From the IMG/VR virus record IMGVR_UViG_3300032040_000005, positions 1 through 64,000 of that record: a stretch of 64,000 bases of DNA; one strand, given 5' to 3'. Of this stretch, positions 22,518 to 63,357 are shown one piece after another. The translations under genes and the position numbers were made by a program. The notes under the pieces are model-generated. The model was not told the origin of the DNA, ran no database searches, and saw only the letters and a list, made by a program, of their open reading frames with translations. The DNA is from a virus (taxonomy: Duplodnaviria; Caudoviricetes). How positions within the stretch are numbered: position 1 is the first letter of the stretch; every line of letters starts with the position of its first letter.

Positions 22518-22946
22518 ATGAATATCGTACCCATGCACAAAGATTTTAAGTTACCCACTAAGTCGTCCACCAAAGCAGGGGCGTATGATTTGTATATGCC
22601 TGATGGCGGTAAACTCTATAACCAGGCACCCAATGGTATGATGTGTGGGCTAGGCTTTGCAGCGGCGGTTCCTGATGGACATGTAGCACTGTTGTTACCG
22701 CGATCAGGTAAAGGTGCTAAAGATGGTTTATCTTTGAATAATACGGCGGGTGTTATTGACCCTGATTACACGGGCGAATGGGTTGTGTACCTTCGTAACC
22801 GTAATATGCGACCCTTTACATGGGAAGCAGGTGAACGATTGATCCAGATGCTCATTGTTAAAACAGAAGAAGTGGACTTCAACATCGTTGATAGTCTTAA
22901 CCCAACCGAACGCGGCCAAGGCGGCTTTGGTTCAACAGGAGAGTAA
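22518..22946 (+). CDS. dut: dUTPase (trimeric)
   Basis: AGAYDL, PRSG, GVIDPDYTGE and RGQGGFGSTG motifs. Confidence 0.95.
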   Translation: MNIVPMHKDFKLPTKSSTKAGAYDLYMPDGGKLYNQAPNGMMCGLGFAAAVPDGHVALLLPRSGKGAKDGLSLNNTAGVIDPDYTGEWVVYLRNRNMRPFTWEAGERLIQMLIVKTEEVDFNIVDSLNPTERGQGGFGSTGE

Positions 22947-26800: not shown

Positions 26801-27530
26801 GCCCATGTAGACGGCAAGACCCCACCTTTCGATCCATAGAACCATCGCCAACAGCGAGGCCCAAGGTATAGGGGTCAATTGGAAGCACCTTTTCTGGGTA
26901 GTCGACCGGCCCAGCCAAAGGAATCCAGACACGATTCTCTTTACCCTTTGGATTCTTAGCGGTTTTGTTCCGACTTGTCGTCAGCTTGAGCTTCAGTAAC
27001 TCGGACGTTGTCAGATCTCGGCGATCCAGGTAATTGACTCTTTTTCCTGCCACGCGCTTCTGGCGCTGATGGATCACGGTATTGATATGATCTTCGCTGA
27101 CCTTCAGCATACGCCCGTCTTCAAGAACCAATTGGTACATAGGCTTGTTGAAAACAACACTCTTGGCTGTCACATCGGCGGGCGCACCATCCTCACCAAA
27201 GACTTGTTCGCCCACTTGAATATTTGCAACCGATTTCCAACCAGCAGGCGTCGGCAGCATTGTGTCCCGGGCTAGTGCCTTCGCCATGCCACGGTGGCAC
27301 AGGTTCGCAATCCGTGTACCGCCCTGGTACAGCGTATCGAGCATGTAGTAATGAACCACCGGTGTAAGGTGTTCCTCACCTTCGGAACCGTTCACCAACT
27401 TAATGAACGTCACAAACTCCAATGCGAAGTCACTGGGTACATACCCTGGATTGACTTCATAACTCACAGCATTCAGGTAATCCTCTACCCCCATAATACT
27501 CTTGAACGCATCCGCTACCGGATCAGTCAT
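23886..27530 (-). CDS. terL: terminase large subunit (N4 gp68-like) interrupted by two inteins
   Basis: Walker A CHRGMAK|TT, Walker B LAVLDD, nuclease TTDFA and HDDFIDT; removing 341+337 aa of intein leaves 536 aa. Confidence 0.95.
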   Translation of the reverse strand: MTDPVADAFKSIMGVEDYLNAVSYEVNPGYVPSDFALEFVTFIKLVNGSEGEEHLTPVVHYYMLDTLYQGGTRIANLCHRGMAKALARDTMLPTPAGWKSVANIQVGEQVFGEDGAPADVTAKSVVFNKPMYQLVLEDGRMLKVSEDHINTVIHQRQKRVAGKRVNYLDRRDLTTSELLKLKLTTSRNKTAKNPKGKENRVWIPLAGPVDYPEKVLPIDPYTLGLAVGDGSMDRKVGSCRLHGHVDDLPHLIKHIPTECGKILLDKRFPSVGRVGLLGLGKHFKTLGLACHGNQKFVPEIYKLGSVEQRLAVLQGLMDTDGTVYKNGCCAFTSNSYRLAMDVRELVLSLGGTAQVVPMNDAYRCNVRLNLPLFRLPRKAERQHFSCGLRVPLVAIEPIAQVPSQCLSVNSPGYTFLAGEYVVTHNTTVMGEYLFLFIAVYSLIPGFGKVRLAIYVSDSIENGVKNMRKNLEFRRDNSEFLMRYLPVIKFTDTRWEFRNRDGQVFIVKGYGAKALSLDSVLYTDMGTTTIGECQVGDRIFGADGELTSITQKSGVFLKPMYELRLVDGRSIKVSEDHINSVVINTNPNNTVRWEDKNLTTKELLQQPLIHTKKGNLGHRGTSSKSLVFVKNAQPLDYTEKVLPVDPYTLGVVLGDGRIQKPSCSVELTTHIDDLPTYQQHIPYEFGKGRFDTRNPNTWTQSIRRLGPALKAMDLGVHGNDKFIPEVYFRGSIEQRQALLQGLMDTDGTVCKSGRTNFCSVSPRLLADTERLVRSLGATAQRCKKPFCTEIWLNEDMFRLPRKRDRQRFDRKGDKVAVASITRIADEPSQCIAVDNEERQFLTGEYFRTHNTGVRGAKEMGIRPGLAVLDDLISDEDARSATVIGAVEDTVKKAVTYALHPTLNMIIWSGTAFNAKDPLYKAVESGAWQVNVFPVCEQFPCTKEEFRGSWPDRFPYEYVKAAYDMAVLEGSVETFNQELMLRIMSEEDRLVQDSEIMWYSLRNILNNKNVFNFYITTDFATSESEKSDYSVISVWAYNNNGDWLWVDGICKRQLMDKNVNDLFRLAQEYRPQGVGIEVSGQQGGFIPWIMNEMMRRNVYFPLVSENNNGKPGLRPTTNKLERFNVIVPQFKMNKIFFPIEKKASPELIECMNEISLASKGGFRSKHDDFIDTISMLPLLTAWKPTETGDLSDRDGSGLWEVDDDEEEDSRMSSYIV
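24984..25994 (-). mobile_element. intein 2 with LAGLIDADG endonuclease (337 aa)
   Basis: Inserted at GYGAK|TGVRG; starts ALSLD, ends RTHN, +1 Thr; LGVVLGDG and LQGLMDTDG motifs. Confidence 0.92.
26256..27278 (-). mobile_element. intein 1 with LAGLIDADG endonuclease (341 aa)
   Basis: Inserted in Walker A at RGMAK|TT; starts ALARD, ends VTHN, +1 Thr; LGLAVGDG and LQGLMDTDG motifs. Confidence 0.92.
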
Positions 27531-33334: not shown

Positions 33335-34252
33335 ATGACAAAGCTCATGCTTCCACGGGACATCCAGCTTACGAATGAGTACATGTATTCGCGTAAGTTC
33401 ATCGACGGTTACATTGACCAAGAGATCCGTGAGAATCCCGAGGTGGAAGCCAAGGTCATGCAGGGCGTAGTCCTGCTGACCGACTGGCTGGCCAAGGATC
33501 ACGGTTACCCATCCAAAAACAACCGCCTTACACAGCTCGCAGACATAGAGATTGAGCCATTGGTTAGGTCTCTGTTCGTGGGTGTGGCTTACTGCCAGAC
33601 TTCTGAGCTGTTCACCAGTGTCTCAGCTCAACTGGCCAGCCGACTGAAGTTCGATGATAAGGCAGACAGCATCCTGACCGCCGCTGAGATGCTGGCTGTG
33701 CTGTGCGAGACCGATGCCTTCGACATTGTGAAAGCCAACCCCAGCGCTTCTCTTGTAATCCTCTCGCGCATCCCTATCAGTCAGCAACTTGTGCGGTATG
33801 TGGAGCAATCAGGCTACCTGCCACCCATGATGTGCGAGCCAGAAGAACTGGTGAACAACTATGACAGTGGTTACCTCACCCACAACGATTCACTGGTGCT
33901 TGGACGTGGTAATGGTCATGCAGGTGATCTCTGTCTGGATGTACTGAACAAGCGTAACAAGGTGCCTATGAGGCTCTGTACGGAGTTCTTATCTAAGGTC
34001 GAGGAAACGCCCACCTTTGAGCTGGATACTGCGGAGAAAGTACAGCAGTGGGCACAGCACAAGACTGAGAGCTACCAGAGGTATTTATTGGTAGCGAACC
34101 AGGGTAATAGGTTCTGGTTGACCAACAAGGTAGATATGCGTGGACGCCTGTACACACAGGGGTATCACATCAATGTGCAGTCAACAGCTTTTAAAAAGGC
34201 AATGATTGAATTTGCTGATGAAGAGCTGGTTGAAGGAGTTCCGCAGCAATGA
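33335..34252 (+). CDS. RNA polymerase II subunit 1 (N4 gp15-like)
   Basis: 305 aa; LPPMMCEP and KVDMRGRLYTQGYHIN (T7-like DxRGRxY). Confidence 0.93.
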   Translation: MTKLMLPRDIQLTNEYMYSRKFIDGYIDQEIRENPEVEAKVMQGVVLLTDWLAKDHGYPSKNNRLTQLADIEIEPLVRSLFVGVAYCQTSELFTSVSAQLASRLKFDDKADSILTAAEMLAVLCETDAFDIVKANPSASLVILSRIPISQQLVRYVEQSGYLPPMMCEPEELVNNYDSGYLTHNDSLVLGRGNGHAGDLCLDVLNKRNKVPMRLCTEFLSKVEETPTFELDTAEKVQQWAQHKTESYQRYLLVANQGNRFWLTNKVDMRGRLYTQGYHINVQSTAFKKAMIEFADEELVEGVPQQ

Positions 34253-34782: not shown

Positions 34783-34847
34783 CACTAAACACAACCAGCG
34801 TTCTGTTGGTTGTGTACCTAACACCTTCCCAAATTGGAGCAATACTT

Positions 34848-36101
34848 ATGCAGTTGTTCACTGGATGGCAGTACCTGTTAATTGATGCAGCGAATAATTA
34901 CGGCCTGGATAAGAAAGAGTTCGACACCCGTATTGCGTGGGCTGAAGAGAATCTGGATCAACTGGAGGTGTTAGGTGAAGACGCAGGCAAATGGAAAGAA
35001 TACCCATTGTTCGTCAAAGCCGTCATGGCCATACGCAAAGCACAAGCTGGTCTGCCTACTGGTCATCGGGCCGGTGCTGACGCGACTGCTTCAGGTATGC
35101 AGATTATGTCTGCACTCACTGGTTGTCATCCCGGCGCATGGGCTACAAATCTGGTCGATCCTAATAAGCGAGTGGATGCGTACACGGAATGCACAAAGCT
35201 GATGCAGAAATGCATACCAACACTGCCTGATACGGCCCGAGCTGACATCAAGGATGCCGCGATGACTGTGTTATATGGTTCAAAGAAGCGACCTAAAGAG
35301 ATATTCGGTGAAGACTCGGAAGAGCTGAACGTCTTCCATAAGTCCATGGGTATCCTCTGCCCAGGTGCTGTGAAGTTACTGGGTGAACTGCGTAACGCGT
35401 GGATACCCTTCGCAAAGTTCCATACCTCTACATTGCCTGATGGCTTTGTAGCCCGCATGAAAGTCATGGAAGAGGTGAAATCCAGACTGGAAGTGGATGA
35501 ACTGGATCATGCCACTTTTACCTACATCTACTACGTAAACGAAGGCAAAGAGAAGGGATTATCGCTCATTGCGAACACCGTCCACGGCGTCGATGCGTAC
35601 ATCCTTCGGTGTGTGGATCGCCGATGCAACTATGATCCAGAGCTTATCAACTGGGCATACAGTTACATCGAGATGCTACTTGAAGAACGTGCCGTGGGTA
35701 TGCACGAGCCAGTGGATAACACCTTCCTGAATCCAGATTTCAATCGGTTGATGGAGCGTTACGAAGCATCGCAAATGCCTGACATACGTATCCTCAACTA
35801 CGCGCAAGAGTATGAGATGCGTGCAATGTCTACGACTCACCTGAAGCAACTCGCTTCCATGTGTTCAATGATGCTTGAACATAAACCTTTCCCTGTCCTG
35901 ACAATCCACGATGATTTCAGTGCCTCAGCAAACAACATGAACTGGGTGCGACTGCACTACAGAGAGATACTGGCTCAGATTGCAGAGTCTACGATGCTGG
36001 ATGATATATTCACGCAACTGTTAGGTGTCAAAGGTAAGTACCAGAAAGAGTCCTACAACCTCGCAGACAAGATTAGAAAGTCCAACTACGCACTTTCTTA
36101 A
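34848..36101 (+). CDS. RNA polymerase II subunit 2 (N4 gp16-like)
   Basis: From MQLFTGWQYLLID; motifs A DATASGMQI, B RADIKDAAMTVLYG, C IHDDF. Confidence 0.94.
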   Translation: MQLFTGWQYLLIDAANNYGLDKKEFDTRIAWAEENLDQLEVLGEDAGKWKEYPLFVKAVMAIRKAQAGLPTGHRAGADATASGMQIMSALTGCHPGAWATNLVDPNKRVDAYTECTKLMQKCIPTLPDTARADIKDAAMTVLYGSKKRPKEIFGEDSEELNVFHKSMGILCPGAVKLLGELRNAWIPFAKFHTSTLPDGFVARMKVMEEVKSRLEVDELDHATFTYIYYVNEGKEKGLSLIANTVHGVDAYILRCVDRRCNYDPELINWAYSYIEMLLEERAVGMHEPVDNTFLNPDFNRLMERYEASQMPDIRILNYAQEYEMRAMSTTHLKQLASMCSMMLEHKPFPVLTIHDDFSASANNMNWVRLHYREILAQIAESTMLDDIFTQLLGVKGKYQKESYNLADKIRKSNYALS

Positions 36102-38666: not shown

Positions 38667-39713
38667 ATGGGTATCCCTGTAAAACTCCCAGATGCTCGGG
38701 AGATGATAGAGCAGTGCCTGTTCGCTAAGATCGTACCGTATGTGACCGGACCACCTGCTTGTGGCAAGTCAGCCGTTGTCCATCAAATGGCGGAAGATTT
38801 TAACCTCAAACTGATCGACTTACGATTAGCGGGTGCTACCCCAGAAGATATGACGGGTTACGCACGAATCCACCCAGACCAGGATAAAGCCGGTCACGTA
38901 CCCATGGATACTTTCCCCGTTGAAGGTGATCCTCTTCCCATTAACCCAGTTACTGGTGAGGCCTACAGCGGTTGGTTGCTGTTTCTGGATGAGCTACCAC
39001 TCGCCAGCGATGACGTACTCAAAGCCTGCTACAAACCCATACTCGATCACATGGTAGGTATCTACCCACTACATGAGCGCCTTGCCATTGTTGCCGCAGG
39101 TAACCGTGCAGAAGATAACGCCATGGCTGGTGATATTGATAACACGGCTCTGCTTTCTCGCATGGCTCACATTGAAACCTGTGTTGATGTCCAAGCCTGG
39201 CTAGTGTGGGCACGTGCTAATGGCGTGGATTACCGCATCACCAGCTTTATCGAGCACAAACCTGATCTACTGTTTAAGTTTGATCCAGACAACGTGGACG
39301 TTACTTTTGCGTCCCCACGTACTTGGGAATTTACCAGCCGCCTTATCAAAACCAAAGATAAGTTGGTTCCGTTAGACAAAATACTCTTGTCAGGCGTGAT
39401 CTCAGAAGGTGTAGCACGAGAGTTCTACGGATACACCCAACTGGAACAAGACCTGCCCAAAATCGCTGACATCGTTGCCGACCCCCTAAACACAGAAGTC
39501 CCCAGGGACCCATCCTGTTTGTGGATGATCACAGGCATCTTAGGACACTACGCAGACGAGAATAACATTAAGAAACTCATGCAATACATTAACCGTATCG
39601 CACGTGAGTTCCAGTTTGTCACTATGCGGGAAGTGCTTGCACGCTCACCCACACTTCAACAACACCCTGCCTTGGATAGCTGGTTATTGGCCAATGGGCA
39701 CGACCTGTTTTAA
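38667..39713 (+). CDS. AAA+ ATPase (N4 gp24-like)
   Basis: Walker A GPPACGKS, Walker B LLFLDE, AAGNR, SPRTWE. Confidence 0.9.
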   Translation: MGIPVKLPDAREMIEQCLFAKIVPYVTGPPACGKSAVVHQMAEDFNLKLIDLRLAGATPEDMTGYARIHPDQDKAGHVPMDTFPVEGDPLPINPVTGEAYSGWLLFLDELPLASDDVLKACYKPILDHMVGIYPLHERLAIVAAGNRAEDNAMAGDIDNTALLSRMAHIETCVDVQAWLVWARANGVDYRITSFIEHKPDLLFKFDPDNVDVTFASPRTWEFTSRLIKTKDKLVPLDKILLSGVISEGVAREFYGYTQLEQDLPKIADIVADPLNTEVPRDPSCLWMITGILGHYADENNIKKLMQYINRIAREFQFVTMREVLARSPTLQQHPALDSWLLANGHDLF

Positions 39714-39726
39714 GGAGAACAGTTTT

Positions 39727-40236
39727 ATGTTCGTCCACGAGAAAGCACAGTTCTACGCCAAAGCTGCCCATACGGCCATCGGTCAAGTACGTAAGTACAC
39801 CGGTGAGCCATACCACACACACCCAGAGGCCGTTGCTGAATTGGTACGGTATATAGGTGGGTCGCTTAACATGGTCGCAGCGGCACACTTGCACGACGTT
39901 ATCGAGGATACGGAAATCACTGAGGAAGACTTGCTCCAAGACTTCAGCAAAGAAGTTGTTGATCTTGTTGTCTGGCTTAGTGATTTGCAGACACCCGATG
40001 TAGGTAATCGAAAAATCCGTAAGTACAACGAACGGTGCAAACTTGCCGAGGCTCCTGCCGAAGCACAGACCATCAAACTCGCTGACTTAATTCACAACTC
40101 ATATTCCATCACCGCTCACGACCCTGAGTTTTCTATTATCTATCTAAAAGAGATGCGTGCAACGCTGTCTGTCATGGCAAAAGGTGATAGCAGGTTGCAT
40201 GACTTAGCCATGGAGATTGTTAACCGACCGGAGTAA
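39727..40236 (+). CDS. HD-domain hydrolase, RelA/SpoT small alarmone hydrolase (Mesh1)-like
   Basis: H..GQVRKYTGEPYHTHP, AAAHLHDVIEDT, IKLADLIHN. Confidence 0.85.
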   Translation: MFVHEKAQFYAKAAHTAIGQVRKYTGEPYHTHPEAVAELVRYIGGSLNMVAAAHLHDVIEDTEITEEDLLQDFSKEVVDLVVWLSDLQTPDVGNRKIRKYNERCKLAEAPAEAQTIKLADLIHNSYSITAHDPEFSIIYLKEMRATLSVMAKGDSRLHDLAMEIVNRPE

Positions 40237-46982: not shown

Positions 46983-47209
46983 TCACTCAAGCTGCTATTG
47001 CACTATTCGGTTTAACCGCCATTTGGTTCTCACAATCTGGTAAACCCAAGCAACGAAAGTGGGCACCTGTACTCGGATTGTGTAGTCAACCTTTCTGGTT
47101 CTACGCAACCTATTCAGCTGAGCAATGGGGCATCTTTGTATTGGCCGCATTCTATACCCTGGCTTGGTGCCGTGGTATCAAAACACATTGGTTTACGGAA
47201 CCGACATGA
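46979..47209 (+). CDS. small membrane protein
   Basis: 76 aa, three hydrophobic segments, QPFW motif. Confidence 0.65.
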   Translation: MITQAAIALFGLTAIWFSQSGKPKQRKWAPVLGLCSQPFWFYATYSAEQWGIFVLAAFYTLAWCRGIKTHWFTEPT

Positions 47210-47700
47210 TAAAGCCACATAAAGTTAAGTTCCATCCCTTCTACTGGGCCATTGTAGAGGCCGCAGCAGCACAGTCTGTTGCAACCCGACATAAGGTAGG
47301 GGCTGTGCTTGTAATGCCTACAGGCATGATCTCAACCGGCTGGAATGGTTCTCCATCAGGACTCCCTGATGAATGCGAGACTTGGGATGATACGCTTCAG
47401 CGATACAAAACAAAGCCAGAGACTGTTCACGCTGAGAGGAATGCAATAGACAAGATGACGCGTGAAGGTGTGTCCACCAAAGGCTCTGTATTGTTTGTCA
47501 CGCGTGCACCTTGCTTTGAATGTGCTAAGGCACTCATGGGCCTGGGCCTGGAAGCGGTGTATTACCGTGAGGAACACGATGATATGCGTGGACTGGAACT
47601 ACTTCACCATGCCGGTATTCGCACAGATCATGAAGCACCGCCTGTAGTGCGACCACCACCACCACCCACTAAACCTGAGCGATACAACTTAGCGGCTTAG
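47206..47700 (+). CDS. dCMP deaminase
   Basis: From MIKPH; KVGAVL, GWNG, HAERNA, PCFECAK. Confidence 0.92.
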   Translation: MIKPHKVKFHPFYWAIVEAAAAQSVATRHKVGAVLVMPTGMISTGWNGSPSGLPDECETWDDTLQRYKTKPETVHAERNAIDKMTREGVSTKGSVLFVTRAPCFECAKALMGLGLEAVYYREEHDDMRGLELLHHAGIRTDHEAPPVVRPPPPPTKPERYNLAA

Positions 47701-51521: not shown

Positions 51522-51677
51522 ATGGAGAATGAAACCAGGTACAACATCGTAACGGATGATGATGAGATTTTAGAGTATGATCTCGATCTGTTCTTAGCTG
51601 AAACCCTGCTCTGCTCTCACATCAACGGTGGAGCTGATGCTTACATTGAAATTATCGAACCAGAGGACACACAATGA
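51522..51677 (+). CDS. small acidic protein (51 aa)
   Basis: MENETRY...; ATGA overlap with the xis-like gene. Confidence 0.5.
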   Translation: MENETRYNIVTDDDEILEYDLDLFLAETLLCSHINGGADAYIEIIEPEDTQ

Positions 51678-51922
51678 ATCCAATACTTAATCCCGCCTAC
51701 GTTCAAATCCCAAAGAAAGAAGCTGCCACCATTTTAGGCATCAGTGTCTCTGAATTGGATCGTCGTAGAATCAGTGACGACCGCTGCCCGAATGGTTTCA
51801 AAGAGCGTGATGATAAAATGGCTCCGGTGAAGTTCCGACTCTCGGACATCTACACGTACTCCGAAGCCATTATGAACAGTGCTATTCCGGCTACTCAGTT
51901 AAAAGGTGCATCGGTCTCTTAG
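51674..51922 (+). CDS. excisionase-like winged-HTH protein (AlpA/Xis)
   Basis: IPKKEAATILGISVSELDRRR...FRLSDI; convergent with and overlapping int. Confidence 0.7.
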   Translation: MNPILNPAYVQIPKKEAATILGISVSELDRRRISDDRCPNGFKERDDKMAPVKFRLSDIYTYSEAIMNSAIPATQLKGASVS

Positions 51923-53120
51923 GCTTACCCTTACCCGTTTCTAAATAATCCAGATAATCCGCGTACCAACACATCATTTCCCGGCGCTTATCCAAATACT
52001 GTGCCTGGTTATATACCCCAGCGTCACCGCCTTCAACGTGTGCTAACTGCATCTCTACGTAGTCTTTATCCCAACGGTGTTCACGTAACAACGTGCTGGC
52101 TGTGTGCCTTGCACCGTGACCTACAAGCTTGCCTTTGTACCCGACTAACCGCAGACACTTATTAATCGTGTTCTCGCTCATCGTGGGGTTCTTAGTACCA
52201 AAGCCTGGGAACACATACTTACCCCGTCCTGACGTTTCATGCATGGTTCGCAGTTCAGCCACTGTTTGAGGTGCCAACGGGATAAGGTGATCTCGACGCA
52301 TCTTCATTTTTGCAGCGGGTATCGTCCATAAGGCGTTATCCAAATCCATATCAACCCATTCACTAAATCGTGCCATGCCTGGGCGACACGCTGTACGCAG
52401 CACCAGGCGTGTCATGGTTAAGGTGATCTGTTTACTCGTAGACTTTCTAAGGGCCATAAGGAAAGCCGGCAACTCGTCTTCTAATAGATGAGGGTGCGGC
52501 GTTTCCTGATGACCTTGTTGAGCCAGATGACGTAACTCACTTGCGGGGTTTACAGTGCAATGGCCTTGAGCCATCGCCAGTGAGAATATTTGATTGATCC
52601 AGAGTCTTACTTTACCGGCAATGGCACCGGCACCCCGGGCTTCCATCTTTGATTGGATCGCCGCACAGTCTAATCGTGTGACTGCATCCAACGCTTTGTG
52701 GCCAATGGCCGGATAGATGTCTTTGTTCAAATACAACTCATATTGATAAAGGCTACCCGCTACGCGGCCTGCCTTTATCTTACGGTCATACCAGTCTTCA
52801 GCGGCTTCTTTAAAAGTCATCTTTTCTTGTATACCCGAACCCAAGTGTACAAGATCTTCACCGTCTGAGGATTGGCTCAGCAGCTCTTTAGCATTCTCGC
52901 GGGCCAACTTACCGGAGACTCGCGGGTATCCGCCCAGACCTTTCCAGGCCCATTTACCGTTGGGACGCTTATACCGTAAGACCCAGGACTTGCCACCGTT
53001 AGTCTTCACACGGAAGTACAAACCTTCGCTGTCACGCTCCTGGTAATCCGTGGTGTCTGGCTCTAAGGCGTTGAGAACACTGTCTGCCAGGGGACGCCGC
53101 TTAATCGCTGATCGCTTCAT
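51891..53120 (-). CDS. int: P4-family tyrosine integrase
   Basis: Arm-binding N-domain GLYFRV..GGKSW.LRY; catalytic R (ACRPG), K (KMKMRR), HGAR, LAH, YN. Confidence 0.95.
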   Translation of the reverse strand: MKRSAIKRRPLADSVLNALEPDTTDYQERDSEGLYFRVKTNGGKSWVLRYKRPNGKWAWKGLGGYPRVSGKLARENAKELLSQSSDGEDLVHLGSGIQEKMTFKEAAEDWYDRKIKAGRVAGSLYQYELYLNKDIYPAIGHKALDAVTRLDCAAIQSKMEARGAGAIAGKVRLWINQIFSLAMAQGHCTVNPASELRHLAQQGHQETPHPHLLEDELPAFLMALRKSTSKQITLTMTRLVLRTACRPGMARFSEWVDMDLDNALWTIPAAKMKMRRDHLIPLAPQTVAELRTMHETSGRGKYVFPGFGTKNPTMSENTINKCLRLVGYKGKLVGHGARHTASTLLREHRWDKDYVEMQLAHVEGGDAGVYNQAQYLDKRREMMCWYADYLDYLETGKGKPKRPMHLLTE

Positions 53121-53145
53121 GTACCTCTCCTTGTATACCCGAACC
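52826..53145. repeat. 16-bp exact direct repeat CTTGTATACCCGAACC
   Basis: Copies at 52826-52841 (inside int) and 53130-53145 (upstream of the int start). Confidence 0.8.
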
Positions 53146-53370
53146 GGAAGTATACACAGAGGTATACACGAAAGGTACTACTGCTGTGGGTAAGCAGGAA
53201 GAGGCTTGAGGGCTTGATTAGGGCTTAACGATATGATTTAGAAGGGTATTTGTGAGGTCTGAGGAGGTGTGAAAATCTTCCGGTGGTAGCGGCGGGCTAA
53301 CCCAAACCGCGCTTGTAAAACAGGTGCTTACAACTCAATAACAGTTCTGTGTACAAGCGTGTGTACACGC
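53125..53370. other. candidate attP
   Basis: Non-coding, upstream of int; GTATAC(A/C)C at 53133/53150/53162 and GTGTACA at 53349/53361 flank a central 53282-53296 that reads CCCGC-CGCTACC-A-CC on the minus strand (tRNA/tmRNA 3-prime-end layout). Confidence 0.55.
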
Positions 53371-53409
53371 TTTTCTCTACTAAGATTCTGATATTACGGG
53401 TGACCTATA

Positions 53410-53434
53410 GAAAAAGCCCCCAGTAAAGGGGGCT
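53410..53434 (-). terminator. rho-independent terminator ending the tail/DGR operon
   Basis: minus strand AGCCCCC-TTTACT-GGGGGCT-TTTT; a second hairpin CGTGGGG-ATAG-CCCCACG at ~53453-53470. Confidence 0.8.
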
Positions 53435-53471
53435 GTCTGTGCGAGAAGACTACGTGGGGATAGCCCCACGG

Positions 53472-53873
53472 TCAACCTGGCTTGGCTTTCATCCTGTTCA
53501 CCACGCCTTCCAGGGCACCGCCACCAAAGTAGAAAGCAGCCACAAGGGCCACCGGTGTACCGAGTGTCGCGTTGTTTAGTTGGCCTACCTCTTTAGCCGC
53601 TTGCGTTAGCTGGGCACCATAGACCGGATCAACCATACCTGCTGCCAGCATGAATCCAGCACACAGTACCCAGATGAGTACGAAGGGAATCGCAAGCACC
53701 AGCATCAACAGACGCTGTGCAATCTTAAAAGGTTCGTACCCTTTGAGCAGGCTCAGGAATCCTTTAGACTTTTCCTCATCTGTGTAGAACGCAGCATCGA
53801 CGCCATTGTAAATACCATCGGCTGCTTTCTTGATGACGTTCTCATTACCGAACAGTGTTGCAAATATCCCCAT
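53472..53873 (-). CDS. holin-like membrane protein
   Basis: YTDEEK...RLLMLV hydrophobic helices...FYFGG, a pattern of phage 3TM holin-like proteins. Confidence 0.6.
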   Translation of the reverse strand: MGIFATLFGNENVIKKAADGIYNGVDAAFYTDEEKSKGFLSLLKGYEPFKIAQRLLMLVLAIPFVLIWVLCAGFMLAAGMVDPVYGAQLTQAAKEVGQLNNATLGTPVALVAAFYFGGGALEGVVNRMKAKPG

Positions 53874-53890
53874 ACCGTTCTCCTGTTGGT

Positions 53891-54127
53891 TTACTGCAAT
53901 GCCAGCATTTGCTTGGCATACCGTACATCAGCTTCAAAGCTCACCAGACAATGATCCATTTGCCAAAAGAATGTTGCGTTAATAATATTCCGTGCTTTAT
54001 TCCACCCTGGCTTGTGCCGGTTAACGTAACACCGAGCTGAGACGGTCTGATCGTGATGACCCAACAGGATAAAGAGGTTCACGGTCTGGCTACACCAGGC
54101 CGCTACTCGTGAGAGAAAGCCGATCAT
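53891..54127 (-). CDS. hypothetical protein
   Basis: SQTVNLFILLGHHDQTVSARC...INATFFWQ.DHC. Confidence 0.65.
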   Translation of the reverse strand: MIGFLSRVAAWCSQTVNLFILLGHHDQTVSARCYVNRHKPGWNKARNIINATFFWQMDHCLVSFEADVRYAKQMLALQ

Positions 54128-54222
54128 ATCGACCAAACCATGGTAGGCAATACAGCGTACATAGTGCCACCAGTTTCGCTAGTTACAGTGTTACAGTTGG
54201 ATCGGTAAAAGTGGATTTTCAT
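54124..54222 (-). CDS. 32-aa micro-ORF, translationally coupled on both sides
   Basis: MKIHFYRSNC...VWSI; ATGA overlaps at both ends. Confidence 0.4.
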   Translation of the reverse strand: MKIHFYRSNCNTVTSETGGTMYAVLPTMVWSI

Positions 54223-54812
54223 AATGCTGACGCCTGTATGAACAGGTCATCTAGTTGTGTATCTGTCAACCCCAACGCTGCACCTAATAGTGACACTAAT
54301 TGTTTACCTCTATCCACATACTGAGAGTATTCCCATTCAATAGTCGCATTGGTTTTGTCCGGCTCCGTCATAGCTGCTAACGCACCTTCCACATCTTGCA
54401 GCAAAGCGTTAACCGCCAAAGCCAGTCTGGCCTGCCTCATGGTCACCCTGTCAGGTGTTATATTGGTCGGGTAATATGTGAGGTCGGGTACATCGGTATT
54501 GACCCAGTAGTCGGCCAGTACTTTTGCCAGTTTCTTCAGCATTGAATGCTGGGCTTCATTTTCTGGGTCACCCTGTAATGAGGCAATCTCACTACCAAAT
54601 GTCGGGTAGTGTGTTTTCATAATCTCTTCAATAATGGTGTTACGATCCGACAACTTATCAACACGAGCCGTTTGGTACGTATATGCAGTCTCAGCGGTAC
54701 CCTCTACATTCGTTCGTGACAGCACCTTTTTATTAAAGTTAATCAAGAGTCTGCGACCCATGACTTGATACGTGTTCAGCTCTACTGGGGATTCTGTCGT
54801 TGAGTTAGACAT
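54219..54812 (-). CDS. DGR-adjacent / tail-fibre-associated protein
   Basis: 197 aa overlapping the RT stop; C-terminal VTMRQARLAL...IEWEY...LGLTDTQLDDLFIQA is typical of tail-associated small proteins. Confidence 0.6.
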   Translation of the reverse strand: MSNSTTESPVELNTYQVMGRRLLINFNKKVLSRTNVEGTAETAYTYQTARVDKLSDRNTIIEEIMKTHYPTFGSEIASLQGDPENEAQHSMLKKLAKVLADYWVNTDVPDLTYYPTNITPDRVTMRQARLALAVNALLQDVEGALAAMTEPDKTNATIEWEYSQYVDRGKQLVSLLGAALGLTDTQLDDLFIQASAL

Positions 54813-55764
54813 TCATTAGTACCTCTCTTCCTGGTTGCCAAAGTCCTTTATTGTTTAATGGTTTTATCCACCCCCAATAAGCGGTAATACTCATTATCCA
54901 TTTAATACGCACAGACTCCAGATATCTATATTTTATAGTAGCGCGTAGACGAGTACAGTCGCTGAAAAAGACGTACCCACAAAAATCTAAACCATTGCTG
55001 GCCAGGGATTGAATAATCCAAGTGGGTTTAATTATAAGTCCTAGTTTATTCACCTGTTGCTCAATTCTTTTTTGTGCTGACCTTAACCATTTTTTACAAG
55101 AACCCAATACAATAAGATCATCGCAGTAACGGAAGTAATACTTCACTTTTAAGTTTTGTTTTGCGTACCAATCCACAGTAGATAAAACCATATTACCCAG
55201 CATCTGGGATATGTAATTGCCTATGGGGAGCCCTTCAACACTTTCAATAATATTATCCAGCAATACGAGAGTACGTGGGCATTTTATATGACGCCGAACG
55301 CATAGCTTGCTGATCTGCTGTTTCACCGATGGGTAGAACTTCTTAATGTCCATTTGCAGATAGTAGGTAGGCCTGCCTTTCCGTATGGCTTTCTGCACAC
55401 GTCGTCGTGCGTCTGAGGTGCCACGGCCCTTCAGTGATTGAAAAGTGTCCCTTATCAGTGAACGTTTCCAGATATCACCAACAACTTGCATAATGGCGTG
55501 GTGAACAATTCGATCTGGGAAATAAGGCAGTACGTGTATCACACGAAGCTTACTGCCTTCTACCCGTTCCATAACGCGATACTCGTTGGTTTGATACGTA
55601 CCATTCATAAGTTGATCGTGTAGCTGCTGGAGGTAAAACTCCTCGTGCTTATTAACCTCCACCACTTCTTTATAATGGCCCTTACCTTTTGAGGCTTTTT
55701 TATGAGCCTCATGTAAATTGTCCATAGATGCGATTTCATCAAAAAGATTACCGTACCGTTTCAT
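54805..55764 (-). CDS. DGR reverse transcriptase
   Basis: 319 aa; FPDRIVHHA, MDIKKFYPSV, GLPIGNYISQ (DGR [IVL]GxxxSQ signature), YFRYCDD, GLDFCGY. Confidence 0.96.
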   Translation of the reverse strand: MKRYGNLFDEIASMDNLHEAHKKASKGKGHYKEVVEVNKHEEFYLQQLHDQLMNGTYQTNEYRVMERVEGSKLRVIHVLPYFPDRIVHHAIMQVVGDIWKRSLIRDTFQSLKGRGTSDARRRVQKAIRKGRPTYYLQMDIKKFYPSVKQQISKLCVRRHIKCPRTLVLLDNIIESVEGLPIGNYISQMLGNMVLSTVDWYAKQNLKVKYYFRYCDDLIVLGSCKKWLRSAQKRIEQQVNKLGLIIKPTWIIQSLASNGLDFCGYVFFSDCTRLRATIKYRYLESVRIKWIMSITAYWGWIKPLNNKGLWQPGREVLMNV

Positions 55765-55879
55765 AGCTATCCTTTAATGCTATACAGCGCCCAAGCGTTT
55801 CAGACCAACACGGTTTACTAAGCTTTTGTGGGATGCGTTTACGCCTTTCGGCGGGATTCTTTGTTTTCCAATATTCTAT

Positions 55880-55995
55880 AGCAAGCTGCCTGGCGATACT
55901 CCGATTCCGATTGCCTGAGCCATTATTCACATTGACGTAAGAAGGACTGACATTCGTACCATTCGAGGTGTTACCACCTACATGAGCTATCTTCC
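55880..55995 (-). repeat. DGR template repeat (TR)
   Basis: In the VR frame it is AAT/AAC-rich (GGNTSNGTNVSPSYVNVNNGSGNRNRSIARQLA); followed by a spacer with a CGCC-GAAA-GGCG hairpin before RT. Confidence 0.96.
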
Positions 55996-56052
55996 GTGCC
56001 TAACAAAGAACCCCTCATTTTAAGTCATTATTCTCCTTAATTATTTAATAGA

Positions 56053-59000
56053 TTATTGAATTTTGGAAAAAGCAAGCCGCCCGGCGATACCCCGATACCG
56101 AAGGCCCGAGCCATCAGTCACACCGACGCAAGAAGGACCGACATCCGCACCATGCGAGGCGCTACCACCCACAAGAGCCATCCTCCAGCCTGAAGACTGG
56201 TAGTAATAATCAGCAAACGCGGTAGATGAATTACCGCTTGAATCGGTTACAACATCACCGAGGGTATTATGCTGCACATTGCGGATATAACCATTAGCAC
56301 CTGGTGCAGCTACACCCAGTTGTGTGTACCCGACAGTGGTATCATCAACGAAGCTGGCGATGTCATTACTGACATACCATACCCGTGCATTGACGTTAAA
56401 CCCGTCGCAGAATTGCCAAGCGTTACCCCAGAAGTTTTCGATACCCCGGTAATTCATCCATGCAGTATCTCGTACAGAACTAACCACGCCACCTGAACCA
56501 TTACCAATAATATTGGATTTACCAGCGACCGAGTGAGGTGAATCTGTTTGACTGGATGACGAAGCCGGATACCCTGTGCTAACACTGTTGTTACCGGCTG
56601 CTAAGAGTGCTTGACCGTCGAACCCACCGTACTCCACAAAGAACAGCAGTTTTATCAAGGACCACTGCCAGAACGTCATCTGCGACCAATTGGAGCCCCG
56701 GTTACTGGCCAATTGTCGCATCTGTGCGCGGGTCACACCAACCATCGGATACTTACCAGATACAGAACCTAAAACATCAGCCGTGTAGTCTACTCTTGAA
56801 TCATTGTTGTCGAGGTTCAGACCATCAATGTATGTTAGACCACTGGTGTCATACACGGATGCATGATACGCACCTACATAGATCGCCTGCTTTTCGCTTG
56901 ATGGGTTGGTGTAATACCACATGTCTACAGCAGGGTCGCGTTGTAACGTACCACCGATTGCGAATGCAGGGTGCAACACAAAACCTGATCTAGGGTAATC
57001 ACTGATTTCCCGCTTAACATCACCATTAAATAGTGTGGATACCCGTACATAACACTTGGGGATTTCAACCATGACCTGACCATCGGTACCATCCAGAACG
57101 GCAGCAGTCCCGTCGGCTTTCAGCGTTGAGTCGTTCAGGCTAAGGTAATAGTTCACCGTGCCATCATCATTCAACAGGCAACGACGCATCCGTTCGTGGA
57201 TCTGTGTGACACCTGTGGAACCGGCATATCTGCTGTATACGTCTGAAGTTGGGTCCCAAACCATATTGGCAGAGATTCTTGGTTCATAACGATTATCCCC
57301 TACCAGCTGTATAACAGACGCATCCGGATACTTGTCTGCTGTACCTGATTCAGCTTCAGCAAAGGTGGCTTTCTCAACAGAACCTGCCGCCTCAGTGGTG
57401 GCTAAGCCGGCCACTTTAAGCCATGCAGTGCCTGAGTAGACCCGCACCTCGTTGGCAACCGTATTGAAGTAGAGATCCCCGGGCGTAACATTTACCGTAG
57501 GCGCTGACGCCAGTGGCCCATGATATTGGTTCTGAAACGTGGTCAGTGAGCTTGCGGCATTGGTTGCACTGGTACTTGCGGCAGAGGCCGAGCCAGAAGA
57601 GTTACTCGCAGACGTGGCGGCATTACTGGCAGAGGTACTGGCATTGGATGCAGACCCTCCGGCATTGGTTTCAGACGTTGCCGCGTTGGTTTCGCTGGTA
57701 GACGCTGCCGTAGCACTGGCACCACCCTTGGAAGCATAGTGCCGGCCCGAGAACTTACCCGTCTCAACGGCAACATCAACAGCCGCATTGGCCCAGTTAT
57801 CGGCTTTGGTTTCACTGGTGGTTGCGTTGGTTGCAGAGGTGCTGGCATTAGAGGCTGAAGTAGCTGCGTTAGTTTTGCTTGTCGCAGCGGCTGAGGCTGA
57901 ACCCGTTGCGTTGGTTTCACTCGTTTTAGAGGCCGTCTCTGACGCACTGGCCTTGGCTGCGTGATGCAGAGCAGAGAACTTGCCTGTCTCTACAGCGGTG
58001 TTTTCCAACGCTTCAGCCCACTGGTTCGCTTTGTTCTGAGACCCCAGAGCAGCGGTCTCAGAGTTGCCCGCGTTGGTTTCCGAGGTGCCTGCATTACCTT
58101 CGGAGATATAAGCTGCACTGGCAGAACCAGAAGCGTTGGTTTCACTGGTGCTGCTGGCGGTCTGTGATGCCGCTGCTGCGGTCTCACTGGCTTTAGCGGC
58201 AGTTGCTGCCGTGGTGGCAACATCTTCCGGTGCCACCCAGAAAGAGCCGGAGTAGAACTTCAGGAAATTATCCGTGGTATTGAAATACACCGCACCGGTT
58301 ACCAAAGCATTACCGTCGTTGTCCACGGTTGGGTCCGAGGCTTTATCCCCCAGGTACTGATCACCGAACTGATCGAACAGACTCTCAGCACTGTTCTTAG
58401 CCGCGACGGCACCGGTCTCTGCCGTCTGTGCAGCGGTCGCTGAACTGCTGGCCGCACTGGCGCTGCCACTGGCATTGGTTTCGCTGGTCGCAGCATTACC
58501 GGCAGATAGGGAAGCTGCTGACTCAGAACCAGACGCATTGGTCTCCGATAGAGCAGCGGCAGTCTCAGAGCCACTGGCGTTGGTTGCACTGACACCCGCA
58601 TTGGTCTCGCTCAGCGCCGAAGCAATGGCCGAGTCCTCTGACTTGATGGCGTGGTGCAAAGAAGAATACTGACCCGTCTCAACGGCCACATCTTCCAGTT
58701 CCTCTGCCCACTTCTCTGATTTGTTCTCAGATGCCAGGGCGCTAGATGCGGAACTATCGGCTGCGGTGCGATCTTGTCCAGTGGCCACCCGATCTGTAGC
58801 CGTAGCGTCGGAGTCCTGCTGCGTCACTACTCGGTCGGCGGCAGTGGCGGTTGCATCATCACCTGTGGCACTCCTGTCTATACCTGTTTGAGCTGCATCA
58901 GCAGCCGTATCCAAGGTGTCTTGGTTGGTAGCAACTCGATCCAACCCCGTCTGTACTGCATCAGCAGATGTATCAACTCGATCCAAGTTAGTTTGGAAGC

Positions 59001-59691
59001 GGTCTGCTGCTGTATCCAAGGTATCTTGGTGGGTGGCTGCTAAGTCAGCAGCCGTATCTATCGTGTCCTGATTCGTTGCAACGAGGTCAGCTCCTGTCGC
59101 CACAACAGCGTTATCAGCATTAGTTTCACTGACCGCTGACGCATCTTCGGAGGCCTGGGCAGCGACCACATTGGCGTCTGTTGCTGCTTTGTTGGTGGCC
59201 ACTTCCGCCCGATCCGCTTCAACGGCATCACGAGTAGCATACAAGGCGTCCAGAGCCTCAGCCGGAACGGTATTACCATCCAATACAAACGACCCTTCTG
59301 GTTGATCCAGTTGCACACGAACGGTCTGATCCAGTATGTCTACCAAGCTTTGCGCCTCGGTTAAAACACTGATTCGTCCGTTCAGGAGAGTGATTTCTTT
59401 CCCGTTAAGCTGACGTCTTAGGTTCAGGTAGTAGTGGCCTTGGGACAAACCCGCTGTCAGAGTTTTATCCAGAACTATGTAGAAAGTACCCAGGACCGCA
59501 TCGGCTGGGTAAATCGTAAGTGACGGGATATACAGTTCAGCGTCTGTATCAACCGTAAGCGGATTACGCTTCAGGGTGACTTCCAGACCCCAGTTGGTAA
59601 TGTCCGATGGGTTGTTAGCCTCATCGGTTACCGTAAATCGGGCTGCAAAGTCATCGCCCTGATATACTTTAAAAAGTGTCTGGTCTTTCAT
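56053..59691 (-). CDS. tail fibre with C-terminal CLec-type DGR-variable domain
   Basis: N-terminal attachment-like domain, long Ala/Thr/Ser-rich repeats, C-terminal GIENFWGNAWQFCDG...LVGG....G...G...GRL motif of DGR targets. Confidence 0.9.
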   Translation of the reverse strand: MKDQTLFKVYQGDDFAARFTVTDEANNPSDITNWGLEVTLKRNPLTVDTDAELYIPSLTIYPADAVLGTFYIVLDKTLTAGLSQGHYYLNLRRQLNGKEITLLNGRISVLTEAQSLVDILDQTVRVQLDQPEGSFVLDGNTVPAEALDALYATRDAVEADRAEVATNKAATDANVVAAQASEDASAVSETNADNAVVATGADLVATNQDTIDTAADLAATHQDTLDTAADRFQTNLDRVDTSADAVQTGLDRVATNQDTLDTAADAAQTGIDRSATGDDATATAADRVVTQQDSDATATDRVATGQDRTAADSSASSALASENKSEKWAEELEDVAVETGQYSSLHHAIKSEDSAIASALSETNAGVSATNASGSETAAALSETNASGSESAASLSAGNAATSETNASGSASAASSSATAAQTAETGAVAAKNSAESLFDQFGDQYLGDKASDPTVDNDGNALVTGAVYFNTTDNFLKFYSGSFWVAPEDVATTAATAAKASETAAAASQTASSTSETNASGSASAAYISEGNAGTSETNAGNSETAALGSQNKANQWAEALENTAVETGKFSALHHAAKASASETASKTSETNATGSASAAATSKTNAATSASNASTSATNATTSETKADNWANAAVDVAVETGKFSGRHYASKGGASATAASTSETNAATSETNAGGSASNASTSASNAATSASNSSGSASAASTSATNAASSLTTFQNQYHGPLASAPTVNVTPGDLYFNTVANEVRVYSGTAWLKVAGLATTEAAGSVEKATFAEAESGTADKYPDASVIQLVGDNRYEPRISANMVWDPTSDVYSRYAGSTGVTQIHERMRRCLLNDDGTVNYYLSLNDSTLKADGTAAVLDGTDGQVMVEIPKCYVRVSTLFNGDVKREISDYPRSGFVLHPAFAIGGTLQRDPAVDMWYYTNPSSEKQAIYVGAYHASVYDTSGLTYIDGLNLDNNDSRVDYTADVLGSVSGKYPMVGVTRAQMRQLASNRGSNWSQMTFWQWSLIKLLFFVEYGGFDGQALLAAGNNSVSTGYPASSSSQTDSPHSVAGKSNIIGNGSGGVVSSVRDTAWMNYRGIENFWGNAWQFCDGFNVNARVWYVSNDIASFVDDTTVGYTQLGVAAPGANGYIRNVQHNTLGDVVTDSSGNSSTAFADYYYQSSGWRMALVGGSASHGADVGPSCVGVTDGSGLRYRGIAGRLAFSKIQ
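56071..56186 (-). repeat. DGR variable repeat (VR)
   Basis: Encodes RMALVGGSASHGADVGPSCVGVTDGSGLRYRGIAGRLA at the target C-terminus. Confidence 0.96.
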
Positions 59692-62616: not shown

Positions 62617-63357
62617 ATGAACGTTGATTACCTAGACCACATGGGAACAGACTTGACCGTAGTTAATGCTGCACGAGTTTCATTCGATACCGTATCCACA
62701 GAACTGAGTAAGAAAGACATCGGACTTATTAACTTCCTGGCACGTGGCTGTATGTCCAAAGACTGGGATGCTGCTGTCAAAGATATGCTAGGACGGACTA
62801 ACAATCCTGATGACATTAATGAAGTTGAAGGGATGCTCAAGTGGGCCAAGAACATGCCCACCCACTGGTCACCCTTCGCACACGCCATGATCTCTATGCG
62901 TGAAACCGTACCCATCTTCGTAGCCCGTCAACGCTTCAAGCACATGGTTGGCTTCACGTACAATGAAACGAGTCGTCGCTATGTTGATGATACGCCTGAG
63001 TTTCATGTACCTGACGTATGGCGTGCTCGCCCTGTAGGCGGTATCAAACAGGGTAGTGGTGGTGTTCATGCAGCTAACGATTATCAACAAGGACAGTACG
63101 CAAGTTTTTGTGAGCACGCGCTGGACCTCTACCATTCCATGATTGAACAGAACGTGGCACCTGAACAAGCACGTATGGTTCTGCCGCAATCCATGCTCAC
63201 CACTTACTGGGTAACCGGTTCGTTGTATGCCTGGGCCAACGCCTATATCCAGCGAAGCGATGCACACGCACAAGTTGAAATACAAGACTTGGCCAAACAG
63301 TGGAATACTATTATAGAACCTCTGTTCCCACATTCCTGGGCTGCACTCACACAATAA
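62617..63357 (+). CDS. thyX: FAD-dependent thymidylate synthase
   Basis: VVNAARVSF, HWSPFAH, ARQRFKH...NETSRRY, EQARMVLP, HAQVEI. Confidence 0.95.
   Translation: MNVDYLDHMGTDLTVVNAARVSFDTVSTELSKKDIGLINFLARGCMSKDWDAAVKDMLGRTNNPDDINEVEGMLKWAKNMPTHWSPFAHAMISMRETVPIFVARQRFKHMVGFTYNETSRRYVDDTPEFHVPDVWRARPVGGIKQGSGGVHAANDYQQGQYASFCEHALDLYHSMIEQNVAPEQARMVLPQSMLTTYWVTGSLYAWANAYIQRSDAHAQVEIQDLAKQWNTIIEPLFPHSWAALTQ

Follow-up and report, generated by a model that had tools for sequence, protein, structure and literature searches.

In textbooks, N4-like phages exemplify a strictly lytic lifestyle combined with a virion RNA polymerase (vRNAP), and they are popular therapy candidates. P4-type integrases target the 3′ ends of tRNA genes; satellite phage P4 integrates into tRNA-Leu in this way, and so do many genomic islands. 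Here, we describe a stretch of 64,000 bp (the window) that covers bases 1-64000 of the 73,935-bp IMG/VR record IMGVR_UViG_3300032040_000005, hereafter G000. In this N4-like genome, a P4-type integrase and a phage attachment site (attP) lie beside a diversity-generating retroelement (DGR). The evidence presented below makes it likely that G000 is a temperate N4-like phage with an integration module directed at tRNA-Leu(CAA) and with an Avd-less DGR on a horizontally gained tail-fibre tip.

Mining IMG/VR v3, Zheng et al. 2023 (mSystems 8:e00197-23; PMC10654107) described lysogeny genes in 54 N4-like genomes or proviruses and N4-like proviruses on 40 bacterial contigs. In four high-quality uncultivated viral genomes (UViGs), assigned to a proposed subfamily SF8, the integrase and a DGR were adjacent in one island. 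The main text of that study makes no mention of attP, attachment sites, tRNA-Leu, an excisionase or a tail fibre, and our literature search found nothing beyond it on DGRs in Schitoviridae. G000 itself may well be among the four SF8 UViGs. Thus, the combination of a temperate N4-like phage and a DGR is already in the literature. A first-pass annotation of this stretch, made from the sequence alone, had considered the pairing novel in N4-like phages, to be refuted if integrase plus DGR were already common among described N4-like genomes; the SF8 report comes near to that and takes the novelty away. What we add is new detail, not a new kind of system: the mapping of the attachment sites, the tRNA-Leu target, a candidate excisionase family and the exchange of the DGR cassette across morphotypes.

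Results

The locus lies in a complete N4-like genome

The completeness of the 73,935-bp record was 100% by CheckV. Its ends overlap exactly over 127 bp, as expected of a circularly assembling genome, so that the "direct terminal repeat" of 127 bp is perhaps an overlap left by the assembler. The polymerase genes that mark the genome as N4-like are as follows.

640-11736, minus strand: vRNAP, an open reading frame (ORF) of 3698 aa that matches phrog_2206 end to end (E=0 across residues 121-3692)
33335-34252 and 34806-36101, plus-strand block: the two subunits of RNA polymerase II (RNAP II), phrog_2166/2051

The plus-strand block carries, besides both RNAP II subunits, a ligase, a helicase and a DNA polymerase A. 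The structural block on the minus strand encodes a gp53-like protein, the capsid, the portal and the terminase, with phrog_1357 and phrog_1216 among the N4-type matches. The gp53-like gene had matches in 244 records, those listed being N4-like phages, and the portal was 57% identical to those of two Schitoviridae isolates, phage Pollock and Salmonella phage FSL SP-058. A DNA-level search of the GenBank phage collection gave no near match to the genome. Judged from gene content, G000 is an uncultivated, complete N4-like (Schitoviridae-type) podovirus genome, the family placement being drawn from best-hit identities. The first-pass annotation had described the vRNAP, RNAP II and N4 structural genes as contiguous with an integrase, a xis-like gene, an att-like gap and a reverse transcriptase (RT), template repeat (TR) and variable repeat (VR) cassette. 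We found all of them where it had placed them or close by.

The integrase adjoins an attP with a tRNA-Leu core

We compared the integrase region with the three closest N4-like relatives (G001, G002 and G003, the last a provirus), two further relatives (L150 and L151) and a free-form relative (L056). The features of the region are as follows; attL denotes the junction at the integrase end of an integrated copy.

51674-51922, plus strand: 82-aa winged helix-turn-helix (HTH) protein, convergent with the integrase gene (int), whose 3′ end it overlaps; a putative excisionase or recombination directionality factor
51891-53120, minus strand: P4-type tyrosine integrase, 409 aa, with the Pfam domains Arm-DNA-bind_3 (PF13356), Phage_int_M (PF22022) and Phage_integrase (PF00589)
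53132-53168, no strand assigned: int-proximal arm-type repeats, TGTAYAC at 53132, 53150 and 53162, kept in G001, G002, the attL of G003 and L056
53284-53297, minus strand: 14-bp common core of attP, with the sequence of the tRNA-Leu(CAA) acceptor 3′ end including CCA
53298-53312: degenerate T-arm copy, adjoining the core
53349-53368, no strand assigned: distal arm-type repeats, TGTAYAC heptamers
53415-53434, minus strand: intrinsic terminator at the end of the fibre/DGR operon, a 7-bp stem (6 GC pairs) and then a run of T
53472-53873, minus strand: 133-aa protein, phrog_9646, whose homologues adjoin attP in G002 and L150 and form the first gene of provirus G003

The three domains bear out the earlier call of a P4-type integrase. 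The protein matched phrog_1 at 2.2e-58, and the catalytic Arg, His-x-x-Arg and His...Tyr motifs were seen by eye in its translation. Its orthologues are 60-75% identical in the N4-like relatives and 89% identical in an integrated relic on two bacterial contigs (L152/L153, described below). The closest integrases from isolates, at about 50% identity, belong to 42-kb Pseudomonas podoviruses; among the closest matches in the GenBank phage collection, none came from an N4-like phage.

Aligning the 351-bp gap upstream of int (53121-53471) with the int-upstream regions of three relatives, we found a conserved tRNA 3′ end. This end, in G000, G001 and G002, aligned with the tRNA-Leu at the attL of G003 and with real tRNA-Leu(CAA) genes. 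The 14-bp core was identical in all three genomes, and the attP version of G002 departs at a single base from the 3′ terminus of an actual tRNA-Leu(CAA). Whereas the density of TGTAYAC heptamers across the genome predicts about 0.14 copies for the gap, six are present (about 40-fold enrichment), and they occur on both sides of the core, as arm sites should. On this comparative evidence, we take the 351-bp gap to be a real attP, as the first-pass annotation had proposed from an att-like gap. Its further proposal that the tail/DGR operon ends at this gap agrees with the intrinsic terminator found there. Rfam, at gathering thresholds, gave no match anywhere in the window. A host-species pattern search with the attP tRNA end in 301 genomes, all of the class of a Neptuniibacter metagenome-assembled genome (MAG) that is introduced below, returned only two near matches, both of them tRNA-Leu(CAA).

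The 82-aa ORF beside int gave no match in Pfam (E<=5), PHROGs or the PDB (phmmer and profile). It has 33 homologue clusters, and on the contigs examined (G002, L150, L151 and L152/L153) each homologue lies beside this integrase type. A homologue of 55% identity occupies the same position in the integrated prophage G003 and shows a weak HTH_17 match (E=0.009). An AlphaFold2 (AF2) model built from the homologue alignment had a predicted local distance difference test score (pLDDT) of 86 and a beta-alpha-alpha-beta-beta-alpha winged HTH fold. Its Foldseek neighbours were a MerR N-domain, the RdfS excisionase (8dgl) and a P2 DNA-binding protein (4lhf), at a probability of at most 0.99. The kinship with excisionases is by fold only and comes with weak E-values (~0.04), which counts against the assignment. 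Of the first-pass xis-like call, the fold (winged HTH of MerR/excisionase type) and the synteny with int stood, and a match to a sequence profile did not appear. By modelled fold and position, the name "xis-like" is reasonable, and the protein probably acts as a directionality factor.

Integrated relatives share the attachment geometry

G003 is an IMG/VR record of 73,086 bp in the provirus class, 99% complete, with a full-length vRNAP and a capsid 82% identical to that of G000. It is collinear with G000, except that the sequence opens precisely at the gap separating int from the counterpart of the 133-aa gene. IMG/VR had trimmed this provirus at gene boundaries. On its 322,916-bp parent contig, a tRNA cluster, Pro-Arg-His-Leu(TAG), lies directly upstream of int, and beyond the cluster follow the glutaminyl- and cysteinyl-tRNA synthetases (GlnRS, CysRS) and malate synthase G. 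The free-form relative L056 carries an attP with 22 of the 23 nt of the tRNA-Leu(TAG) end of G003.

The closest homologue of the 82-aa protein (88% identity) is found on the bacterial contigs L152 and L153, beside flagellar genes. Both contigs have a 1,637-bp block 87.7% identical to window positions 51674-53310, comprising the xis-like gene, int, the proximal arm and the core, and this block ends in a complete tRNA-Leu(CAA). L153 also has the opposite junction, where the distal arm, including the degenerate T-arm copy, passes via the 14-bp core into host DNA (position 288). The two junctions have exactly the 14-bp core in common. Set against attP, they form the classical Campbell pattern, which therefore fixes the core at window positions 53284-53297. 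Only about 6.7 kb separates the junctions, an insertion sequence (IS) transposase lies inside, and int has an in-frame stop at codon 59; therefore, the relic represents an old integration and not a live prophage. At positions 566-4097 of L153, an rve-family IS transposase and a BigA-like autotransporter gene lie between the att junctions and replace about 70 kb of phage genes. FlgI of the relic host shares 63-64% identity with its counterparts in Marinobacterium and Neptuniibacter. The first-pass annotation had asked for an integrated copy split at the att core, and such copies exist among relatives: the relic junctions of L152/L153, and G003 at tRNA-Leu(TAG).

We also found capsid genes 63-70% identical to that of G000 in four bacterial assemblies (L136, L138, L139 and L142). 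These assemblies comprise Larsenimonas suaedae DSM 22428, Marinobacterium litorale DSM 23545, the Neptuniibacter MAG and Xenophilus sp. Marseille-Q4582. One such N4-like capsid gene is located within a 914-kb isolate contig, and another on a 74.9-kb contig that may represent an entire phage genome. Of the five bacterial genomes searched, four (Larsenimonas, a Burkholderiaceae MAG, Marinobacterium and Xenophilus) had no integrase of this type beside the N4-like region; the Neptuniibacter MAG has an integrase of 32% identity on the same contig as the capsid gene, about 40 kb away. This distribution suggests other integration systems in most of these genomes.

The integrase module could also be a functionless or repurposed remnant, in which case the phage would be effectively lytic, as the characterised N4-like phages are, and the integrated relatives would reflect a past or sister-lineage lifestyle. 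Several observations weigh against a temperate G000 and favour such a remnant. The integrated copies are those of relatives, and a copy of the exact G000 phage was not found; all records found of the exact phage are free, circularly assembling genomes. The sole G000-like integrated copy found, the closest one, is the decayed relic with its broken int. Searching six frames of the whole genome, we found neither a CI/Xre-type HTH (HTH_3) nor a Peptidase_S24 domain, and a scan of 14 G000 ORFs, 13 of them small and one encoding a 197-aa protein, gave no such repressor domain either; a repressor of a novel kind may still be encoded. On the other hand, int is full length with all three of its domains, the xis-like gene is kept in synteny, and a 99%-complete relative is integrated. 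Moreover, the attP core and both arm-repeat sets are kept though int has diverged to 60-75% identity; the conservation of the site across diverged relatives argues for purifying selection on attP. With these points on its side, the temperate reading is much the stronger: a remnant appears quite unlikely, and this N4-like phage is very probably temperate.

A DGR beside the integration module targets the tail fibre

The DGR lies on the far side of attP from int and comprises the following features.

54805-55764, minus strand: DGR RT, 319 aa, Pfam RVT_1; phrog_1423 at E=1.7e-93
55877-55995, minus strand: TR, 119 nt, intact
56068-56186, minus strand: VR, 119 nt, encoding fibre residues 1169-1208
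56053-59691, minus strand: tail fibre of 1212 aa, the DGR target, matching PHROG tail-fibre families

The RT translation contains the IGNYISQ (IGxxxSQ) and YCDD (YxDD) motifs. TR and VR align without gaps over 119 nt and differ at 24 positions, every one of them a TR adenine (24 of the 33 adenines; chance P ~4e-14). The changes from TR to VR are 16 A>G, 5 A>T and 3 A>C, and the TR has 8 AAY codons. All non-adenine positions are identical between the two repeats, which implies recent homing. The fibre consists of an N-terminal anchor (residues ~1-110), a shaft of Ala/Ser/Thr-rich repeats and a tip (residues ~800-1212). An AF2 model of the last 413 residues gave a pLDDT of 85.6 and a predicted template-modelling score (pTM) of 0.90. 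In Foldseek, it matched TaqVP (5vf4, E=4.9e-10) and then Mtd (1yu4, E=3.8e-4), with FGE and TvpA lower. According to the model, the tip adopts a C-type-lectin fold, as a DGR target should. By its RT motifs, the adenine-specific mismatches and this predicted target fold, the cassette beside the integration module is a genuine DGR, in line with the RT/TR/VR cassette of the first-pass annotation.

Whether the element still homes is a separate question, since TR and VR might record past mutagenesis in a fossil DGR. Three observations speak for a fossil and against a presently active element. Avd was not found, either with PF05635 and TIGR02436 in six frames of the whole genome (E<=1) or among the neighbouring ORFs, which had no Pfam match and of which the 197-aa protein next to the RT is not Avd-like. 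No stable hairpin was found downstream of VR (z = +1.2). Three assemblies of this phage have the same VR. As to the first of these, Avd-less DGRs are known, so a missing Avd is compatible with DGR membership. As to the last, the three identical assemblies may represent one sample series, and contigs show the consensus only. The TR transcript showed no unusual fold, and the TR/VR homology ends in a GC-rich stretch. Against a fossil, the RT ORF is intact with catalytic and DGR-specific motifs, and the TR is intact, with the complete non-adenine identity noted above. Furthermore, a sibling cassette in two siphovirus-like assemblies (L145 and L146) has an identical TR and a VR that differs between them at 2 positions only, both TR-adenine sites; this polymorphism fits activity of this cassette type. 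We therefore doubt that the element is a fossil, while granting that reading some real chance.

The fibre tip and DGR form a cassette in common with a siphovirus

54757-57219, minus strand: exchanged cassette of fibre tip, VR, TR and RT, with 82% nucleotide identity in one block to siphovirus-like L145 and L146

L145 (IMG/VR 3300031953_000013) is 56.9 kb long, and L146 (3300032392_000020) is a fragment of the L145 phage. Neither has the N4 portal or this integrase; their tail proteins are of siphovirus type (Dit, central fibre), and genes for deazaguanine modification are also present. The block that G000 has in common with L145 comprises RT, TR, VR and the last ~390 fibre codons. Their RTs are the nearest to that of G000 (88% aa identity), and the tip is 75% identical at the aa level over residues 760-1212. 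The anchor of the fibre (~110 residues) belongs to the lineage, with 31-32% identity in G001, G002, G003 and L151. The RT was not found in the three closest N4-like relatives nor in L150 and L151, all of which have the integrase. Sequence comparison thus indicates that the tip and DGR cassette were acquired horizontally and grafted in frame onto the lineage's own anchor and shaft, because the cassette is 82% identical to that of a siphovirus and absent from the closest N4-like relatives. The integrase module is common to all close relatives examined, and the DGR, found in this phage only among them, is a recent acquisition. The first-pass annotation had inferred that the lineage gained both lysogeny and hypervariable receptor binding; by this distribution, the two were not gained together.

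The modification genes of L145/L146 are of the DpdA/queuine type together with GTP cyclohydrolase, and the same DGR cassette sits there on a 585-aa fibre. Compared with G001-G003, L150 and L151, the region of the window from attP to a conserved 535-aa fibre (53.4-61 kb) is a hypervariable host-recognition module. Behind the same ~110-residue anchor, the relatives carry polysaccharide lyase, Laminin_G_3 or beta-propeller proteins.

A cassette so similar to part of an unrelated siphovirus, and missing from the closest N4-like relatives, is also what an assembly chimera would produce, joining pieces of an N4-like phage and of a temperate DGR-bearing phage. The first-pass annotation had itself named a coverage or linkage check against such a join. 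Comparing three assemblies from different metagenomes, we found the same gene order from the fibre to int and no base difference in the compared 4.8-5.9 kb, which extends from the VR/TR pair across RT and into int. An identical RT occurred on 12 contigs from Joint Genome Institute (JGI) metagenomes, 11 of them of 50-200 kb. The cassette junction is in frame within a fibre that has the lineage's own anchor, int and attP are at the same place in G001, G002, G003, L150 and L151, and the GC content runs without a break. Because the linkage of int and DGR recurs in three assemblies base for base, the join is not chimeric, and we give the chimera hardly any credence.

Other features of the window

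54219-54812, minus strand: 197-aa protein whose start overlaps the RT stop by 8 nt; phrog_6034 only, no Pfam match

This protein lies outside the block in common with L145 and is absent from the relatives.

The large terminase (23886-27530, minus strand) has 1214 aa, about twice the normal length. Its N- and C-terminal matches are separated by inserts with LAGLIDADG, Hint and homing-endonuclease domains, and because such inserts split the terminase matches, the gene probably holds one or two inteins. Genes of nucleotide metabolism, for ThyX (62617-63357), a dCMP deaminase (47125-47700), a dUTPase (22518-22946) and an HD-domain protein (39604-40236), are scattered over the window.

Discussion

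Our reading of this phage draws on gene content, the adenine signature of TR and VR, the attP/attL/attR geometry in relatives, the sharing of the cassette and the reproducible assembly, and the target fold, seen in a structure model, is also counted among the observed points. The first-pass annotation had spoken of a candidate temperate, tropism-switching Schitovirus. Comparative evidence upholds the lysogeny module and the fibre DGR in that statement, while lysogeny of this phage, the excisionase role of the 82-aa protein and current activity of the DGR are what we infer from them.

We envisage the following mechanism. The integrase would bind the arm-type repeats through its N-terminal arm-binding domain. 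A Campbell-type crossover at the core would place the phage genome downstream of the tRNA-Leu(CAA) gene and rebuild the 3′ end of that gene from phage sequence. Ending at attP, the host-recognition operon would come to sit at one end of the prophage. In the DGR, the RT would make errors at adenines while copying the TR RNA, and VR would be overwritten by the resulting cDNA. Such a replacement could alter the final 40 residues of the fibre at about 24 positions and change receptor specificity.

No classical repressor was found that could maintain lysogeny in this scheme. The early promoters of N4 need the injected vRNAP. Because early promoters of this kind would be readable only by an RNA polymerase delivered with the virion, a prophage without vRNAP protein might be silent by default. 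A fuller model would have lysogeny maintained in this manner, without a classical repressor, and the operon at the prophage end serving as a landing pad for cassettes exchanged between podoviruses and siphoviruses. We regard this extended model as speculative and rather unlikely in its entirety. In either case, the apparent lack of a classical repressor raises the question of how a phage with early genes that depend on an injected polymerase enters and leaves lysogeny.

A temperate branch that is able to rewrite its receptor-binding tip changes the view of the lifestyle and host range of the family. Our analysis adds a mechanistic skeleton that is open to direct testing. It comprises the exact attP core and its tRNA-Leu target, for which both attL and attR were observed in bacterial DNA, a family of candidate excisionases restricted to this lineage, and evidence for the arrival of the DGR as a portable fibre-tip cassette in common with a siphovirus.

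Comparison with known systems

Like Bordetella phage BPP-1 with its Mtd/Avd/TR/Brt system, G000 shows adenine-specific TR-to-VR mutagenesis, has the RT gene downstream of TR and carries the VR at the C-terminus of a receptor-binding tail-fibre protein with a C-type-lectin fold; BPP-1 is a temperate phage as well. Unlike BPP-1, the carrier here is an N4-like podovirus, neither Avd nor a recognisable post-VR hairpin was found, and the target fibre has 1212 aa and a tip that was swapped in, the best structural match being TaqVP and not Mtd.

As in P4-type systems, the integrase has an arm-binding N-domain, a SAM-like domain and a catalytic domain, and int adjoins attP and reads away from it. Likewise, attP carries a 3′ portion of tRNA-Leu, so that integration would restore the tRNA. 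In contrast to P4-type systems, the core here is only the last 14 nt (the 3′ strand of the acceptor plus CCA), and the T-arm copy in attP is degenerate.

With Escherichia phage N4 and cultured Schitoviridae, G000 has in common the vRNAP, RNAP II and capsid/portal/gp53 modules in N4 gene order, and it differs from them by the integrase, attP, xis-like gene and DGR. It resembles the lysogenic N4-like UViGs and proviruses of Zheng et al. 2023, SF8 included, in the N4-like hallmark genes, in an integrase and DGR in one island, and in the integrated N4-like proviruses of bacterial contigs; to that description, the present analysis adds the mapped att sites, the tRNA target and the siphovirus link of the cassette.

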